Positions 1 to 6,245 of a stretch of 6,274 bases of DNA are shown here, piece after piece. Each line of letters begins with the position of its first letter. Positions within the stretch are counted from its first letter, which is position 1. The translations under genes and the position numbers were made by a program. The notes beneath the pieces are model-generated. The model searched no databases and had not been told where the DNA came from. It was given only the letters and a program-made list of their open reading frames with translations. Origin of the DNA: a virus (Duplodnaviria; Heunggongvirae; Uroviricota; Caudoviricetes); the IMG/VR virus record IMGVR_UViG_2695420597_000012. The stretch is one strand, 5' to 3'.

Positions 1-269
1 AGCCTTCAGGGAAAAATATCATCAGATGGCTGCTTAAAAAAAGAACAAATGGTAGTGTCCGCTATTGCCAGTACACCTCAGGATAGCGGTCATGTGATGC
101 CGGTTTCCCGGTAACTCAGCACCGGTATCTGAGTCAACGTTTTCTCTACTGGGTCATTTCCGATACGCCCTGCCTGCTGACAGGCTTTCATCACATCTGA
201 AAATATAGCACCCTGACTGATACTGTAGTACCTAAGGTTCCAGAAACTGTGATGTATCCGGCACAGAAA

Positions 270-288
270 AGCCCCTCCGGAGAGGGCT
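270..288 (-). other. Imperfect GC-rich stem-loop (7 bp with one bulge) followed on the minus strand by TTTCT; possible weak terminator or RNA 3' end
   Basis: agcccctccggagagggct. The unit 2 copy at 1901-1920 has one extra G, giving a perfect 8-bp stem. Confidence 0.3.
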
Positions 289-484
289 GGAGAGTGGCGC
301 TATGTGCCATTGCATGATGCCGGGTGCCTCCCGGTGAATTCAGTACCAGCACCTGAATCCGCGATTATCCCATATACCTACTCGCTGATTGCCCCTCCGC
401 ACAGGGGGATTCACCATGCCAGTTTCTTTTAACAAACTCCCCGCAAAACAGACAACTGTCAACCGTCTGAATTGTGAGACATTT

Positions 485-510
485 AAAAAAAAGGCCCGCA
501 AAAGCGAGCC
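485..510 (-). terminator. Rho-independent terminator directly after the tRNA cluster
   Basis: Minus strand reads ggctcgc-tttt-gcgggcc followed by TTTTTTTT (plus-strand A8 at 485-492, stem 493-499/504-510). It lies 15 nt after the CCA end of tRNA-Arg(UCU). Confidence 0.65.
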
Positions 511-524
511 AGGGAAAATAAGTG

Positions 525-601
525 TGGCGCGTTGTACTGGATTCGAACCAGTGACCGATTGCTTAGAAGGCAATTGCTCTGTCCGGCTGAGCTAACAACG
601 C
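525..601 (-). tRNA. argO: tRNA-Arg, anticodon UCU
   Basis: Hand-folded cloverleaf on the minus strand: acceptor GCGTTGT/ACAACGC, D-stem GCTC/GAGC, anticodon stem ATTGC/GCAAT with loop CTTCTAA, T-arm ACTGG-TTCGAAT-CCAGT, discriminator G, encoded CCA. The symbol is assigned from context (lambdoid ileZ-argN-argO cluster), not from a search. Confidence 0.8.
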
Positions 602-614
602 ATGATGCAGATAA

Positions 615-691
615 TGGACCGCCATCGGGGACTTGAACCCCGCGCAACCAGCTTCGAAGGCTGGCGCTCTTTCCTGATGAGCTAATGGCGG
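615..691 (-). tRNA. argN: tRNA-Arg, anticodon UCG (reads CGA/CGG)
   Basis: Acceptor CCGCCAT/ATGGCGG, D-stem GCTC/GAGC, anticodon stem CCAGC/GCTGG with loop CTTCGAA, T-arm CGGGG-TTCAAGT-CCCCG, encoded CCA. Unusual: position 1 is C, the discriminator is U, and A(-1) could pair with U73. Anticodon and symbol should be confirmed. Confidence 0.65.
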
Positions 692-698
692 TATGTGA

Positions 699-774
699 TG
701 GTGGCCCTTGCTGGATTTGAACCAGCGACCTGGCGATTATGAGTCGCTCGCTCTCACCACTGAGCTAAAGGGCC
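699..774 (-). tRNA. ileZ: tRNA-Ile2-like, anticodon CAU (lysidine type, reads AUA); formally could be Met
   Basis: GGCCCTT-TA-GCTC-AGTGGTGA-GAGC-G-AGCGA-CTCATAA-TCGCC-AGGTC-GCTGG-TTCAAAT-CCAGC-AAGGGCC-A-CCA. This closely resembles my recollection of E. coli ileX (tRNA-Ile2, CAU). Confidence 0.8.
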
Positions 775-814
775 GGGAGCCGCATAATAACGACGCGTAA
801 TTAATTCTTCAATA

Positions 815-1845
815 TCATCCGTTCTGGCTGACTAAATCCTGTACTTCCCGAACCGTCTGCTCAAAACGTTCAGTCTCCAGCTCAACGCCAATTGCACGAC
901 GCCCGAGCGCCAGTGCCGCTTTCACTGTCGAACCCAACCCCATGAAAAAATCTGCAATCAGGTCACCCGGACGACTGCTAGCGCTGATTATCTGCTGCAG
1001 CATTTCTGCCGGTTTTTCGCACGGATGTTTCCCGGGATAGAACTGCACCGGTTTATGCGTCCACACATCGGTATACGGCACCTGCACCGTCACGCCAAAA
1101 TACCGCCGCAGATGTTTATATTCACTCAGCAGCTCCGCATACTGCCGGTTCAGTGAGGTATACGTATCCACCAGCTGGTGGTGGAGCTTTTCCAGTTCAC
1201 CACGCCGATGCTTCTCTTCTGCCACCCGGGCAAACAGCGCCTGTAATTTCAGATAATCGCTTTCATTCGGCAACTGCCACTGACCGGCACTGAACCAGTG
1301 CGACACCATGTTTTTCTTTCCTGTGGCATCTGCAATCTGTTTTGCCGTTATCCCCAGGGCAGCTCGCGCATCACGAAAGTAAGAAATCAGCGGGGCCATC
1401 ACATGCTGTTTCAGTGCACTGCCCTTCGCCGCATACCCGGCATCTTTCGGACGATACGGCCCCTGATAATGTTCCGCGAACAGAATGCGCTCTGTGGCGG
1501 GGAAATACGCCCGCAGGCTTTCCTTGTTGCATCCGTTCCAGCGTCCGGACGGCTTCGCCCAGATAATATGGTTCAGCACACTGAAGCGTTCACGCATCAT
1601 GATTTCGATATCAGATGCCAGGCGATGACCACAGAACAGGTAAAGACTTCCGGCAGGTTTCAGCACCCGCCAGAACTGCGCCAGACACTGGTCCAGCCAC
1701 TTCAGGTAATCATCGTCGCCCTTCCACTGGTTATCCCAGCCCTCAGGCTTCACTTTAAAGTACGGCGGGTCCGTGACTATCAGGTCAACAGAATTTTCGG
1801 GTAACGACCGGATAAATTCCAGGCAGTCGGCGTTGATTAACTCAC
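815..1845 (-). pseudogene. DNA amino-methyltransferase (beta class), copy 1, missing the first ~9 codons and start codon
   Basis: Identical to 3793-4823. Motif IV DPPY and motif I DFFMGLGST are retained. The frame stays open upstream to a TAA at 1871-1873 with no in-frame ATG; the only GTG (1751-1753, used by the ORF track) lies after DPPY and has no Shine-Dalgarno. It could still be annotated as a CDS with a non-canonical start. Confidence 0.55.
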
Positions 1846-1900
1846 TAAAACAACAAAGTCCATAAGGAGTTTACTCACATCTGACAAAATCAATATAAAC

Positions 1901-1920
1901 AGCCCCTCCGGAGAGGGGCT
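1901..1920 (-). other. Perfect 8-bp GC-rich stem-loop (agcccctc-cgga-gaggggct)
   Basis: Direct inspection. Minus-strand downstream sequence is U-rich (gtttatattgatttt) but not a clean U-tract. Confidence 0.3.
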
Positions 1921-2116
1921 GGAGAGTGGCGCTATGTGCCATTGCATGGTGCCGGGTGCCTCCCGGTGAATTCAGTACCAGCACCTGAATCCGCGATTAT
2001 CCCATATACCTACTCGCTGATTGCCCCTCCGCACAGGGGGATTCACCATGCCAGTTTCTTTTAACAAACTCCCCGCAAACCAGACAACAGTCAACCGCCT
2101 GAATTGTGAGACATTT

Positions 2117-2142
2117 AAAAAAAAGGCCCACAAAAGCGAGCC
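2117..2142 (-). terminator. Rho-independent terminator after tRNA cluster 2
   Basis: Minus strand ggctcgc-tttt-gtgggcc + T8. One stem base differs from unit 1, giving a G-U pair, so the stem is kept. Confidence 0.6.
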
Positions 2143-2156
2143 AGGGAAAATAAGTG

Positions 2157-2233
2157 TGGCGCGTTGTACTGGATTCGAACCAGTGACCGATTGCTTAGAA
2201 GGCAATTGCTCTGTCCGGCTGAGCTAACAACGC
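2157..2233 (-). tRNA. argO: tRNA-Arg, anticodon UCU (copy 2)
   Basis: Identical to 525-601. Confidence 0.8.
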
Positions 2234-2246
2234 ATGATGCAGATAA

Positions 2247-2323
2247 TGGACCGCCATCGGGGACTTGAACCCCGCGCAACCAGCTTCGAAGGCTGGCGCT
2301 CTTTCCTGATGAGCTAATGGCGG
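2247..2323 (-). tRNA. argN: tRNA-Arg, anticodon UCG (copy 2)
   Basis: Identical to 615-691. Confidence 0.65.
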
Positions 2324-2330
2324 TATGTGA

Positions 2331-2406
2331 TGGTGGCCCTTGCTGGATTTGAACCAGCGACCTGGCGATTATGAGTCGCTCGCTCTCACCACTGAGCTAA
2401 AGGGCC
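2331..2406 (-). tRNA. ileZ: tRNA-Ile2-like, anticodon CAU (copy 2)
   Basis: Identical to 699-774. Confidence 0.8.
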
Positions 2407-2455
2407 GGGAGCAGAATAATAATGGTGCGTAATTAATTCTGCAATCTCATCCGTT

Positions 2456-3477
2456 TCAAACGATTAAATCCTGAACTTCCCTGACTGTCTGCTCAAAACG
2501 TCCGGTCTCCAGTTCAACGCCAATCGCACGACGCCCGAGCGCCAGTGCCGCTTTTACCGTTGAACCTGAGCCCATAAAAAAATCTGCAACCAGGTCTCCC
2601 GGACGACTGCTTGCGCTGATTATCTGCTGCAGCATTTCTGCCGGTTTTTCGCACGGATGTTTCCCGGGATAGAACTGCACCGGTTTATGTGTCCACACAT
2701 CCGTGTACGGCACCTGCGCCGTCACACCAAAATACCGCCGCAGATGCTTATATTCACTCTGCAGCTCCACATACTGCCGGTTCAGTGACGTATACGTATC
2801 CACCAGCTGGTGGTGGGGCTTTTCCAGTTCACCGCGCTGATGTTTCTCTTCTGCCACCCGGGCAAACAGCGACTGTAATTTCAGATAATCGCTTTCGTTC
2901 GGTAGCTGCCACTGACTGGCACTGAACCAGTGCGACACCATGTTTTTCTTTCCTGTGGCATCTGCAATCTGTTTTGCCGTTATCCCCAGGGCCGCGCGCG
3001 CATCACGAAAGTAAGAAATCAGCGGGGCCATCACATGCTGTTTCAGTGCACTGCCCTTCGCCGCATACCCGGCATCTTTCGGACGATACGGCCCCTGATA
3101 ATGTTCCGCGAACAGAATGCGCTCTGTGGCGGGGAAATACGCCCGCAGGCTTTCCTTGTTGCATCCGTTCCAGCGTCCGGACGGCTTCGCCCAGATAATA
3201 TGGTTCAGCACACTGAAGCGTTCACGCATCATGATTTCGATATCAGATGCCAGGCGATGACCACAGAACAGGTAAAGACTTCCGGCAGGTTTCAGCACCC
3301 GCCAGAACTGCGCCAGACACTGGTCCAGCCACTTCAGGTAATCATCGTCGCCCTTCCACTGGTTATCCCAGCCCTCAGGCTTCACTTTAAAGTACGGCGG
3401 GTCCGTGACTATCAGGTCAACAGAATTTTCGGGTAACGACCGGATAAATTCCAGGCAGTCGGCGTTGATTAACTCAC
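2456..3477 (-). pseudogene. DNA amino-methyltransferase, diverged paralog (copy 2), N-terminally truncated at the junction with tRNA cluster 3
   Basis: About 10 amino-acid differences from copies 1 and 3, a C-terminus 3 codons shorter (LIV* versus LVSQNG*), and many silent nucleotide changes. DPPY is retained; motif I is DFFMGSGST. The frame runs upstream into tRNA-derived sequence with no in-frame ATG. Confidence 0.55.
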
Positions 3478-3502
3478 AAAAGCGAGCCAGGGAAAATAAG
3501 TG

Positions 3503-3579
3503 TGGCGCGTTGTACTGGATTCGAACCAGTGACCGATTGCTTAGAAGGCAATTGCTCTGTCCGGCTGAGCTAACAACGC
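3503..3579 (-). tRNA. argO: tRNA-Arg, anticodon UCU (copy 3)
   Basis: Identical to 525-601. Confidence 0.8.
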
Positions 3580-3592
3580 ATGATGCAGATAA

Positions 3593-3669
3593 TGGACCGC
3601 CATCGGGGACTTGAACCCCGCGCAGCCAGCTTCGAAGGCTGGCGCTCTTTCCTGATGAGCTAATGGCGG
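3593..3669 (-). tRNA. argN: tRNA-Arg, anticodon UCG (copy 3, variable-loop variant)
   Basis: Same as 615-691 except plus-strand A to G at 3625 (variable loop TTGCG to CTGCG in the tRNA). Confidence 0.65.
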
Positions 3670-3676
3670 TATGTGA

Positions 3677-3752
3677 TGGTGGCCCTTGCTGGATTTGAAC
3701 CAGCGACCTGGCGATTATGAGTCGCTCGCTCTCACCACTGAGCTAAAGGGCC
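3677..3752 (-). tRNA. ileZ: tRNA-Ile2-like, anticodon CAU (copy 3)
   Basis: Identical to 699-774. Confidence 0.8.
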
Positions 3753-3792
3753 GGGAGCCGCATAATAACGACGCGTAATTAATTCTTCAATA

Positions 3793-4851
3793 TCATCCGT
3801 TCTGGCTGACTAAATCCTGTACTTCCCGAACCGTCTGCTCAAAACGTTCAGTCTCCAGCTCAACGCCAATTGCACGACGCCCGAGCGCCAGTGCCGCTTT
3901 CACTGTCGAACCCAACCCCATGAAAAAATCTGCAATCAGGTCACCCGGACGACTGCTAGCGCTGATTATCTGCTGCAGCATTTCTGCCGGTTTTTCGCAC
4001 GGATGTTTCCCGGGATAGAACTGCACCGGTTTATGCGTCCACACATCGGTATACGGCACCTGCACCGTCACGCCAAAATACCGCCGCAGATGTTTATATT
4101 CACTCAGCAGCTCCGCATACTGCCGGTTCAGTGAGGTATACGTATCCACCAGCTGGTGGTGGAGCTTTTCCAGTTCACCACGCCGATGCTTCTCTTCTGC
4201 CACCCGGGCAAACAGCGCCTGTAATTTCAGATAATCGCTTTCATTCGGCAACTGCCACTGACCGGCACTGAACCAGTGCGACACCATGTTTTTCTTTCCT
4301 GTGGCATCTGCAATCTGTTTTGCCGTTATCCCCAGGGCAGCTCGCGCATCACGAAAGTAAGAAATCAGCGGGGCCATCACATGCTGTTTCAGTGCACTGC
4401 CCTTCGCCGCATACCCGGCATCTTTCGGACGATACGGCCCCTGATAATGTTCCGCGAACAGAATGCGCTCTGTGGCGGGGAAATACGCCCGCAGGCTTTC
4501 CTTGTTGCATCCGTTCCAGCGTCCGGACGGCTTCGCCCAGATAATATGGTTCAGCACACTGAAGCGTTCACGCATCATGATTTCGATATCAGATGCCAGG
4601 CGATGACCACAGAACAGGTAAAGACTTCCGGCAGGTTTCAGCACCCGCCAGAACTGCGCCAGACACTGGTCCAGCCACTTCAGGTAATCATCGTCGCCCT
4701 TCCACTGGTTATCCCAGCCCTCAGGCTTCACTTTAAAGTACGGCGGGTCCGTGACTATCAGGTCAACAGAATTTTCGGGTAACGACCGGATAAATTCCAG
4801 GCAGTCGGCGTTGATTAACTCACAACTGGATATTTTTACAGTATTAAGCAT
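3793..4851 (-). CDS. DNA N6-adenine or N4-cytosine methyltransferase (beta-class, likely orphan, phage type), full length 352 aa
   Basis: ATG at 4849-4851 with an in-frame TGA two codons upstream. DPPY (motif IV) lies near the N-terminus and FxGxG (DFFMGLGST, motif I) near the C-terminus, the IV-then-I order of beta-class amino-MTases. No adjacent restriction endonuclease ORF. The Shine-Dalgarno is weak. Confidence 0.85.
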   Translation of the reverse strand: MLNTVKISSCELINADCLEFIRSLPENSVDLIVTDPPYFKVKPEGWDNQWKGDDDYLKWLDQCLAQFWRVLKPAGSLYLFCGHRLASDIEIMMRERFSVLNHIIWAKPSGRWNGCNKESLRAYFPATERILFAEHYQGPYRPKDAGYAAKGSALKQHVMAPLISYFRDARAALGITAKQIADATGKKNMVSHWFSAGQWQLPNESDYLKLQALFARVAEEKHRRGELEKLHHQLVDTYTSLNRQYAELLSEYKHLRRYFGVTVQVPYTDVWTHKPVQFYPGKHPCEKPAEMLQQIISASSRPGDLIADFFMGLGSTVKAALALGRRAIGVELETERFEQTVREVQDLVSQNG

Positions 4852-4944
4852 GGATCATTAAGCCTGTCTCTGATAGGCTCATTCTGCTTTTGCGCAAAGC
4901 AGTGGGCCTGAGGTTTGCTTGTGAACCCAACGCATGAGCAGATG

Positions 4945-4973
4945 GCTGGTGGGTGCCCCTAACACCCACCAGC
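4945..4973 (-). other. Perfect 11-bp stem-loop (gctggtgggtg-cccctaa-cacccaccagc), not followed by a U-tract on either strand
   Basis: Direct inspection. It lies between the terminator at 4986-5015 and the methyltransferase start. Confidence 0.5.
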
Positions 4974-4985
4974 CGCCCATTTACC

Positions 4986-5015
4986 ACAAATAAAAAAGCC
5001 TTCACTGCGGAAGGC
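4986..5015 (-). terminator. Rho-independent terminator after the 65-aa ORF
   Basis: Minus strand gccttccgcagtgaaggc (6-bp stem) followed by TTTTTTATTT. The ORF stop codon (5002-5004) lies inside the stem. Confidence 0.55.
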
Positions 5016-5199
5016 GTCTGTAACAACCGAACTGATAGTCTGCCAGACCCGCCATAACCAGCTGGGTCAGTATTAACTGGCAGCGTTCGCGTGAAAGGTA
5101 AGTATTCTGCGCTATCTCCCCGACTGTCGCCGGTTCGGTAACGCTTAATTCATTAAACACCACTCTGGCGGTTTCTGTCATATCCTGCTGTTTTAGCAT
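5002..5199 (-). CDS. Small 65-aa protein, possibly a winged-helix DNA-binding protein (PapI/FaeA-like pattern)
   Basis: ATG at 5197-5199 preceded by AAGGA 6 nt upstream (minus strand ggaaaaggaaaagacATG), with its own terminator. The segment TVGEIAQNTYLSRERCQLILTQLVMAGL resembles small winged-helix regulators. The fold assignment is by eye only. Confidence 0.4.
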   Translation of the reverse strand: MLKQQDMTETARVVFNELSVTEPATVGEIAQNTYLSRERCQLILTQLVMAGLADYQFGCYRRLPQ

Positions 5200-5317
5200 G
5201 TCTTTTCCTTTTCCGGTTAACGTGACACACCAATAACTCTTGTCGAAAAAGCCAGCAAGCTGAAAGACAGGTATTCACCGCCACCAGCGCGTTTACTGTA
5301 CTGACGCGATTTCAGTC

Positions 5318-5341
5318 ATAAAAAACCCGCCAGGCGGCGGG
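5318..5341 (-). terminator. Strong rho-independent terminator ~85 nt downstream of Q (tR'-like)
   Basis: Minus strand cccgcc-gcct-ggcggg (6 GC pairs) followed by TTTTTTAT. Confidence 0.6.
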
Positions 5342-5390
5342 GTGTAAAAAATCTTCTAACGTCAGGCATAAAACGCCCATCGTTAGAGCA

Positions 5391-5418
5391 AATTTACCAC
5401 AGATTCGGGAAAAATCAA
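5391..5418 (-). promoter_or_regulatory. Candidate sigma70 late promoter (PR'-like) just after the Q stop
   Basis: Minus strand TTGATT (5418-5413) - 16 nt - TAAATT (5396-5391). Hexamer match only; the qut site is not identifiable by eye. Confidence 0.25.
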
Positions 5419-5423
5419 CAACA

Positions 5424-6245
5424 CTATCGCGTTACCCTCTTTAACTGCCGCTCCGCCCATGCCTCTTCAATGTCAAACCGAACCACCAACGTATCGTAAA
5501 AGCGTTTCACTGATTTTTTCCACGTATCAAGCGTGATAGCACTCGTCACTTTGCATATGGCATTAAATGCCTCCGTTGATGGCAGCCTTTCACAGCCACG
5601 ACCACCACAACGCTGGCAGTCTCTGATAACAGGCATACCACGTTTTACCGACTCTTCACGATGAATGGCGACACCACGCCCACGGCAATCCTTACAGGCG
5701 GTGGAAACCTCACCCTTTCCGCCACACTCCGGACAGGCAACTTTTACCACCTCCCGATTTTTTTTCCATTCTTCCCAGTAAGACGGATACACACCTTTCG
5801 TACACTTTGCCCATACCGGCGGCTTACCATCCGGATACTGGACCTTGTTTGTAAAAACTACGCTTTCAATAAATTTTTCCCCATAGCAACAAGGGCACTG
5901 CTTTTTACTCGCTGCGCTGCGGGCATAATCCTCAAAAGCGTACGAAGCCATAATGCGCATCACTACCGGTTTTATTTCTGCCGGGAGTTTTCTTAACGCC
6001 GCCACGCGATCACACCGACTGAGTGCATATTCTGTCAGCAATTCTGTTGCCCGCTCTCTGTCATTCATACTAATGCCCATTTTCCCAAGGAACGCAGAAA
6101 ACCCCATCTCAGCCCGATTCTGTGTCATGCCCTGCGCGGCCATCACATCAGTGATACTCAGCGCATCTTTCGACGTTGAGGCCGATGCATCAGTCAGGCC
6201 GGGGGATTTTGGGGAGTAGTATTTCGGTAAATCTTCCAGTTTCAT
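5424..6245 (-). CDS. Antitermination protein Q-like (long Q family with DnaJ-type CxxCxGxG zinc-finger repeats), 273 aa
   Basis: ATG at 6243-6245, stop TAG at 5424-5426. Three CxxCxGxG-type repeats (CPECGGKG, CKDCRGRG, CQRCGGRG) plus CPCC. It sits immediately upstream of a promoter/terminator pair and the methyltransferase-tRNA late region, as in lambdoid prophages. Family assignment is from memory, not a search. Confidence 0.6.
   Translation of the reverse strand: MKLEDLPKYYSPKSPGLTDASASTSKDALSITDVMAAQGMTQNRAEMGFSAFLGKMGISMNDRERATELLTEYALSRCDRVAALRKLPAEIKPVVMRIMASYAFEDYARSAASKKQCPCCYGEKFIESVVFTNKVQYPDGKPPVWAKCTKGVYPSYWEEWKKNREVVKVACPECGGKGEVSTACKDCRGRGVAIHREESVKRGMPVIRDCQRCGGRGCERLPSTEAFNAICKVTSAITLDTWKKSVKRFYDTLVVRFDIEEAWAERQLKRVTR

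Follow-up and report, generated by a model that had tools for sequence, protein, structure and literature searches.

Two beheaded methyltransferase genes at the joints of a heteroallelic module array in a Shigella-type prophage

Why should two of the three copies of a DNA methyltransferase gene in one prophage be cut at the same internal position, and where does the 55-bp sequence that follows one of them come from? Both questions are raised by the DNA analysed here, a stretch of 6,274 nucleotides (the window) whose genes all lie on the minus strand. Read along that strand, the window begins with the antiterminator gene Q (6245-5424; PF03589), a gene for a 65-aa hypothetical protein (5199-5002), the intact gene of a 352-aa N6/N4 DNA methyltransferase (unit C, 4851-3793; PF01555), and tRNA set C (3503-3752), which comprises Ile2 (CAT anticodon), Arg-TCG and Arg-TCT. 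Junction J1 then leads into a methyltransferase gene that lacks its 5' end (copy B, 2456-3479), a putative pseudogene with an allele of the type called P2 below in its 3' half; this is followed by tRNA set B (2125-2406; intact terminator 2142-2125), a gene for the sRNA STnc100 (copy B, the X_B region, 1891-2080; RF02076; terminator 1921-1900), and the 20-nt tail of an iraM gene. Past junction J2 lie a further methyltransferase gene without its 5' end (copy A, 815-1845; PF01555), likewise a putative pseudogene and identical to 3793-4823, tRNA set A (493-774; Ile2/CAT, Arg-TCG and Arg-TCT; intact intrinsic terminator 510-493), a second STnc100 gene (copy A, the X_A region, 259-448; RF02076; terminator-like site 288-270), and about 80 nt of one end of the IS3-family element IS600 (1-80). 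The tRNA Ile2, with its CAT anticodon, is called as Met by ARAGORN.

The canonical single-copy locus of E. coli runs from Q through the hypothetical gene, methyltransferase, tRNAs and STnc100 region to the nanS-p esterase gene and the lysis genes. The upstream context of the window (5002-6245) matches this gene order, and the IS600 end, with 95-97% identity to annotated IS600 ends, sits where the region upstream of nanS-p would otherwise continue. In both STnc100 copies the alignment to RF02076 spans model positions 1-206, with covariance-model scores of 132.4 bits for copy B and 123.6 for copy A (gathering score 47); the PF01555 profile, with beta-class motif order, gives 144 bits for the intact methyltransferase and 124 bits for the copy-A ORF read from its GTG (cut-off 26.7). 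At 1840-1905 lies junction J2 of an array in which a methyltransferase-tRNA(-STnc100) module is present as three units, head to tail. The tRNA set is thereby tripled and STnc100 doubled, and a span of 3.5 kb holds nine tRNA genes and both STnc100 alleles.

The sequence that follows copy A at J2 had been described in an initial annotation as a 55-bp segment found nowhere else in the window. This holds, as the 52-55 nt after 1845 have no second copy there (best ungapped match 25/52), and only 1870-1890 resembles another part, 186-206, at 17 of 21 positions. Beyond the window the sequence is not unique: many complete E. coli genomes and several phage records match 1844-1990 with 100% identity, and these matches overlap a feature annotated as “anti-adapter protein IraM” together with an adjoining annotated feature. 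What looked like a novel sequence resolves into the tail of an iraM/iraL-family gene, a spacer and the end of STnc100. Positions 1846-1865, on the plus strand, are the last 20 nt of the iraM/iraL-family gene (LKQQSP and the stop codon TAA at 1863-1865) and are 100% identical to 5003-5022 of locus L001, the end of the coding sequence of WP_000871291.1. Positions 1866-1890 are the intergenic spacer between the convergent iraM and STnc100_B genes, a P2-type allele of the ~186-206 region (family D5), and from 1891 on the sequence is the 3' end of the convergent STnc100 gene. The native L001 locus reads ...TGTCCTTATGGAC/TAAAACAACAAAGTCCATAAGGAGTTTACTCAC... (a slash marks the breakpoint here and below).

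The native gene beside the joint encodes a 111-aa protein of the IraM subfamily, scoring 162 bits with NF007393 (cut-off 121). The rest of this gene is missing from the window, which holds no full-length NF007393 ORF. IraL is a characterised homologue of IraM; in CFT073 its gene is reported from the potB genomic island, whereas K-12 has iraM on prophage e14, and iraL is enriched in Shigella (PMC4045071). Whereas those genes encode anti-adaptors, only the six last codons and the stop are present here, and hence no anti-adaptor is encoded. In folding calculations the native iraM end forms a hairpin with a 12-bp stem (-10.8 kcal/mol, z = -4.8), of which 1846-1868 (plus strand) retains the whole 3' arm (AGTCCATAAGGA), the loop of 10 nt and just the final base of the 5' arm.

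The same remnant explains the AAGGAG motif at 1864-1869, which had been noted as perfect but with no start codon in reach. Its position and plus strand are as described, and no ATG, GTG or TTG lies in reach downstream of it; the motif is made up of the stop codon of iraM and hairpin bases from the 3' arm, and because it occurs once in the window against 2.85 occurrences expected, it is not significant. We reject it as a ribosome-binding site on all three counts. A reading of the joint as the N-terminus of another methyltransferase allele, which the initial annotation had named as grounds for its own refutation, is also rejected, as the sequence is part of iraM and runs on the other strand. We conclude that the joint is an iraM/iraL tail, spacer and STnc100 3' end fused to a beheaded methyltransferase, a recombination scar without function of its own; known neighbours account in full for 55 bp that had seemed to be an orphan sequence bearing a “perfect RBS”.

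At J2 (1844-1847) the methyltransferase sequence ...AACTCAC passes directly into TAAAAC... of the iraM tail, where the native iraM side reads ...TATGGAC/TAAAAC.... The microhomology is AC (2 nt), a chance level expected in ~19% of random joints. The joint fuses methyltransferase nt 29 to the loop of the iraM 3'-end hairpin, with the partner break 1 nt inside the hairpin 5' arm; the native sequences joined in silico reproduce window 1726-2005 exactly, and the 31-mer spanning the junction is TGATTAACTCACTAAAACAACAAAGTCCATA. J1 (3475-3488, spanned by the 31-mer TGATTAACTCACAAAAGCGAGCCAGGGAAAA) fuses the same methyltransferase position, ...AACTCACAA, to AAGCGAGCC, the loop and one arm of the tRNA-operon terminator. 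The native terminator side reads GGCCCRC/AAAA/GCGAGCC, the partner break falls in the last 3 nt of its 5' arm or the first 2 nt of its loop, and the microhomology is CACAA (5 nt, P ~0.006) if the partner was the P2 allele or CAA if it was the allele of the resident type, P1. All bases flanking J1 and J2 can be assigned to methyltransferase, iraM-tail or tRNA-terminator sequence, with no mobile-element end or site-specific recombination site at either joint. A role of IS600 in the joints was considered and rejected, the element being confined to 1-80. From these features we infer that both joints are illegitimate, microhomology-level joins.

Base-by-base comparison places the methyltransferase breakpoints close together. 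Copy A follows the intact gene up to 1845 (corresponding to 4823) and copy B up to 3479 (corresponding to 4825), so the two truncations do map to the same position, 2 nt apart and with overlapping microhomology intervals. The loss had been put at 27 nt; it is 28 nt in copy A, which includes the ATG, and 26-28 nt in copy B. Two independent random breakpoints in a gene of 1059 nt would fall within 2 nt of each other with P ~0.005, and the shared endpoint is therefore more than chance.

The three units are not copies of one another throughout. Units A (499-1845) and C (3477-4823) have a single difference in 1,347 nt, an A at 647 and a G at 3625, and unit B has 52 differences from them, all within 2279-2996; the 480 nt beside the junctions are identical in all three methyltransferase copies. 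Unit B matches a prophage type represented by locus L015, here called P2, with the order Q, hypothetical gene, MTase_B, tRNAs, X_B (STnc100), iraM on the opposite strand, and nanS-p. Window 1846-2996 is identical to L015 except for 1 nt in X_B, the methyltransferase part 2456-2996 and tRNA set B have 100% identity to it, and 2997-3476 is a segment common to all alleles. For the other units, a look-up with the exact intact methyltransferase protein, which is listed in 4,314 index blocks, led to loci of a type called P1 (L016-L025) on chromosomes of ~4.5-5.0 Mb, among them HE616528.1, which we take to be Shigella sonnei 53G. Window 1-1845 has 1 mismatch to these loci and shares their IS600 insertion point: the insertion at window position 80, where homology to the canonical locus L003 begins, recurs in L016-L019, L021, L022 and L025. 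Positions 3477-5330 are 100% identical to L016. Further upstream, in Q, the mosaic differs from that of the P1 loci, and the best P1-type match among complete E. coli genomes reaches just 97%.

Because each unit matches its parent type (L015 or L016-L025), the array reads, at the level of sequence, as P1-J1-P2-J2-P1, with units A and C from the resident prophage and unit B, with the 55-bp joint, from an iraM-bearing lambdoid prophage. The resident P1 type is a Shigella-type defective prophage, seen in loci including S. sonnei 53G, and here it carries a 2,978-bp insertion made up of the P2-derived unit and a duplicated P1 unit. The initial annotation had called the two junctions independent; as two truncations of a single gene they are not, the middle unit being from a different prophage type. 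Unit A has the P2-type A at base 647, where G is found in unit C and in L016. At least one isolate assembly (L130) contains sequence of both parental types. The IMG/VR contigs L130 and L123 were also examined as natural two-module prophages with iraM beside an intact methyltransferase, and rejected because their module boundaries are single-N scaffold gaps. Reading them as natural precursors would have made J2 a simple 743-bp deletion.

Neither junction was found in 5,426 complete E. coli genomes, INPHARED phages, IMG/VR, GTDB species representatives or JGI metagenomes, although both flanks of the joints are common in the collections from which the joints themselves are absent. Degenerate pattern scans for both junctions across IMG/VR, GTDB species representatives and JGI metagenomes gave three hits, which have no similarity to the window and were rejected as chance. 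Three further scans of IMG/VR for a non-canonical continuation after ...GGCGTTGATTAACTCAC gave 0 hits; the site is intact in more than 120 contigs there. Exact-protein look-ups with the truncated ORFs (309 aa and 312 aa) gave no match that carries the array; their matches are cut off at a contig edge, lie on an N-filled scaffold, or have the 5' end intact. Literature on the ileZ/argN/argO module and on tandem duplications in S. sonnei prophages yielded nothing relevant. This heteroallelic triplication appears to be undescribed and rare.

The joint might supply expression signals, the AAGGAG motif or a non-canonical start, from which the truncated methyltransferases or a small ORF would be expressed. 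Both truncated copies do keep DPPY and FxGxG at the DNA level, as first described. J1 moreover destroys the terminator of tRNA set C, of which the 3' arm and U-tract are gone; no terminator is predicted after this set, where sets A and B have one each, and with the terminator lost, copy B, directly downstream, is probably co-transcribed with set C. The frames nevertheless speak against translation. When they were recomputed, neither copy had an in-frame ATG, GTG or TTG upstream of DPPY, which bears out the reported lack of an in-frame ATG. In copy A an in-frame TAA occurs at 1873-1871, and the nine codons between it and the junction include no ATG, GTG, TTG, CTG or ATH, not even a near-cognate start; the copy B frame extends without a stop across the tRNA genes as far as 3745, with CTG and ATH codons only. 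The first canonical start is a GTG at 1753 in copy A or 3385 in copy B, and as both follow DPPY, the products would miss the catalytic motif, so that DPPY and FxGxG lie inside a translatable ORF in the intact copy (3793-4851) only. Copy A also sits behind two intact terminators (2142-2125 and 1921-1900), and the AAGGAG, besides its chance frequency and iraM origin, is opposite in strand to the methyltransferase. We consider a functional joint very improbable. Judged by their sequence, both truncated copies are pseudogenes without a usable start codon, and they can be annotated as such.

Doubt about the array itself is better founded, though still slight. Chimeric reads or mis-resolved near-identical prophage repeats could have produced it in the library or assembly: the array is in no other assembly searched, units A and C are hard for short reads with their 1 difference in 1,347 nt, and draft assemblies of this region are untidy, L130, L123 and L043 having module boundaries that are bridged in the scaffold by a single N. 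Mis-assemblies, however, join within shared repeats, and J1 and J2 join non-homologous sequences with 2-5 nt in common. The window is without Ns, each unit has a coherent allele pattern (P1, P2, P1), and random chimeras would hardly give one consensus two distinct, exact joints. We therefore hold an artefact to be improbable and, from the nature of the joints, take the array to be probably real. A little less unlikely is a sequence-specific hotspot, in which methyltransferase nt 27-29 (...GATTAACTCAC/AACTGG...) would be a preferred site of fork stalling, nicking or breakage, J1 and J2 would have arisen there independently, and the 3' end made there would repeatedly invade single-stranded hairpin loops or join hairpins cut by SbcCD. 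Palindromes known to be cut by SbcCD in vivo are far longer than the stems of the two partner hairpins, which are just 7 and 12 bp. Both partner breaks do lie 1-3 nt from the border of a hairpin 5' arm and loop, and they fit the specificity of SbcCD, which is reported to cleave hairpins on the 5' side of the loop (PMC12323751); cleavage of this type as the source of the partner breaks is suggestive. The motif AC/(T)AA is common to all three sites, and in E. coli CB7453 the 5' part of the methyltransferase gene carries another tandem duplication, of 454 bp, which marks the region as rearrangement-prone. That duplication, however, is at another position, the methyltransferase site has no notable secondary structure on either strand (z ~0), and the argument draws on n = 2 junctions. 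The intact site in more than 120 IMG/VR contigs, with no alternative junction there, and the absence of both joints from the 5,426 E. coli genomes also count against it. A bolder form of the hotspot, which we regard as a long shot, would make nt 27-29 a sequence-determined fork-collapse or nick site whose freed 3' end is accepted by hairpin loops, with the tripled tRNAs retained as a benefit to the host. If true, lambdoid prophages would have a reproducible route to amplify tRNA/sRNA cargo modules and exchange them between co-resident prophages, and the tripled set of rare-codon tRNAs (AUA, AGA/AGG, CGA) would be retained for its benefit to a Shigella-type host.

We favour, with some reserve, a linked origin of J1 and J2 in one lineage, which would account for their common methyltransferase endpoint. 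The initial annotation had offered a recombination hotspot or shared history; since the joints are in no collection searched and IMG/VR has no other junction at the site, shared history fits better than a general hotspot. A linked origin might take either of two forms. In one, a single compound template-switching event would pass from P1 to P2 and back to P1: synthesis would proceed along P1 to the methyltransferase site and jump to the P2 iraM loop, then continue through P2 to the same site, jump to the P1 terminator loop and run onward. Such an event would yield P1-type units A and C and the P2-type unit B in one go, leaving over only base 647, and the P1-P2-P1 pattern is compatible with serial template switching (FoSTeS/MMBIR). 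Against it, synthesis would have to stop twice at one site on two templates, which amounts to a mild hotspot assumption. In the other form, a stepwise history of amplification would have derived one joint from the other via their shared CAC/AAAA motif. J1 and J2 have CTCAC...AAAA in common, and deleting 1846-2130 (285 bp) between CAC repeats turns J2 into J1 exactly; against this derivation, it would take at least 3-4 steps, and unit C would have had to acquire the P1 allele by gene conversion. Under a linked origin the P2-type base 647 in unit A requires an extra conversion or mutation.

The setting of the array is familiar. Its genes and their order are those of the late-regulatory module of lambdoid and Stx-type prophages (Q, a hypothetical gene, methyltransferase, tRNA-Ile/Arg/Arg, STnc100, stx or iraM, nanS-p, lysis), with 97-100% identity (examples L003, L015 and L016-L025), and the joint is part of the iraM-bearing version. 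In contrast to the canonical module, the window has three tandem copies of the methyltransferase-tRNA part, two of the methyltransferases are beheaded, and iraM is cut to 20 nt. In Salmonella and E. coli, tandem duplication and amplification are known to proceed without RecA, by way of microhomology and with remodelling of the junctions, and serial template switching is described as FoSTeS/MMBIR. The array has what identifies a tandem-duplication joint, head-to-tail units and a novel joint absent from the parental sequences. By analogy with RecA-independent duplication and FoSTeS/MMBIR, it seems to include a segment from a second homologous template, and one joint would be derivable by a short deletion; the 2-5 nt shared at its novel joints, at chance level for J2, may be comparable. 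The double use of an endpoint and partner breaks at hairpin borders do not define either model. In a defective prophage of Shigella dysenteriae 1, the stx region is reportedly amplified in tandem by homologous recombination between flanking IS elements. That case resembles ours in being a defective lambdoid Shigella prophage amplified just downstream of Q, and differs in that no IS stands at the joints here, IS600 lying outside the array at 1-80. STnc100 has been located downstream of tRNAs and beside esterase genes, and multiple copies of related Pas sRNAs, far apart, have been attributed to superinfection and not to tandem duplication (bioRxiv 10.64898/2026.05.13.724894). The window is like the STnc100/PasD loci of that preprint in placing STnc100 past the tRNAs and beside esterase genes; unlike the Pas sRNA copies, its two STnc100 alleles are 1.6 kb apart in one array.

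All components of the locus are known: the lambdoid late-regulatory module, the iraM/iraL moron, STnc100, IS600 and the PF01555 methyltransferase. The junction at 1840-1905 is largely an ordinary recombination scar, correctly observed. What remains to be explained is that one methyltransferase endpoint was used twice and that the partner breaks lie at hairpin borders, which by itself does not amount to a new mechanism. A heteroallelic triplication assembled from two prophages represents module exchange between co-resident lambdoid prophages by illegitimate, not homologous, joints, and its shared endpoint and hairpin-border breaks offer a small hint of how such joints may form.

The Q antiterminator gene is a mosaic. 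Up to 5330 its identity to L016, the reference locus for the resident defective prophage type (P1), is 100%; across 5331-6101 it carries about 80 differences from L016, and the closer match is a Q of the E. coli O121/CB7453 type. This switch puts a boundary of homologous recombination immediately upstream of the array of three methyltransferase-tRNA units.

The two P1-type units, A and C, are separated by a sole base, which lies in tRNA-Arg-TCG (positions 647, 2279 and 3625 in units A, B and C). Unit C has G at 3625, as does L016, whereas unit A has A at 647, the base also found in unit B, which derives from the iraM-bearing lambdoid prophage type (P2), and in most E. coli prophages. A short tract of gene conversion, from unit B into unit A, may account for this difference, or else a point mutation. 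Each methyltransferase copy contains the Chi sequence GCTGGTGG, read directly from the sequence at 1171-1178 and 4149-4156 (+ strand) and at 2803-2810 in copy B, about 670 nt away from the breakpoint shared by the two truncated copies.

A scan found a promoter-like site, TTGAAG-17-TATTAT, on the minus strand immediately ahead of tRNA-Ile in both P1-type units (3762-3790 and 784-812), and reported none before tRNA-Ile in the P2-type unit B. The site might serve the tRNAs as a promoter of their own, in which case the alleles would differ in this respect.

At the window edge, positions 1-80 hold one end of an IS600 (IS3-family) element. It is inserted immediately downstream of the sRNA gene STnc100_A, in place of the expected continuation of the nanS-p upstream region. 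The loci retrieved with the exact methyltransferase protein have an identical insertion point, suggesting that the source resembles Shigella sonnei.

Three IMG/VR scaffolds (L130, L123 and L043) have apparent two-module prophage arrangements, but in each of them the module boundary coincides exactly with a scaffold gap of a single N, which calls for caution when mining such contigs for synteny. In L123, tRNA-Arg is also interrupted by an insertion of 1.34 kb that has terminal inverted repeats and is possibly IS421-like. In two metagenome scaffolds (L007, 2391-2886; L008, 2056-2535) the gene call for the B-type methyltransferase is an ORF of 309 aa with a GTG start, preceded by a 119-121-aa gene in place of the usual 65-aa gene. 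The DNA nevertheless still holds the normal ATG region, and the call probably results from a stop or frameshift close to the 5' end.

E. coli CB7453 (L002, NZ_CM144245.1) has a different, 454-bp tandem duplication at 4454-4908, covering the 5' part of the methyltransferase and giving two N-termini, both intact; this shows that other strains, too, are liable to local duplications in the region.
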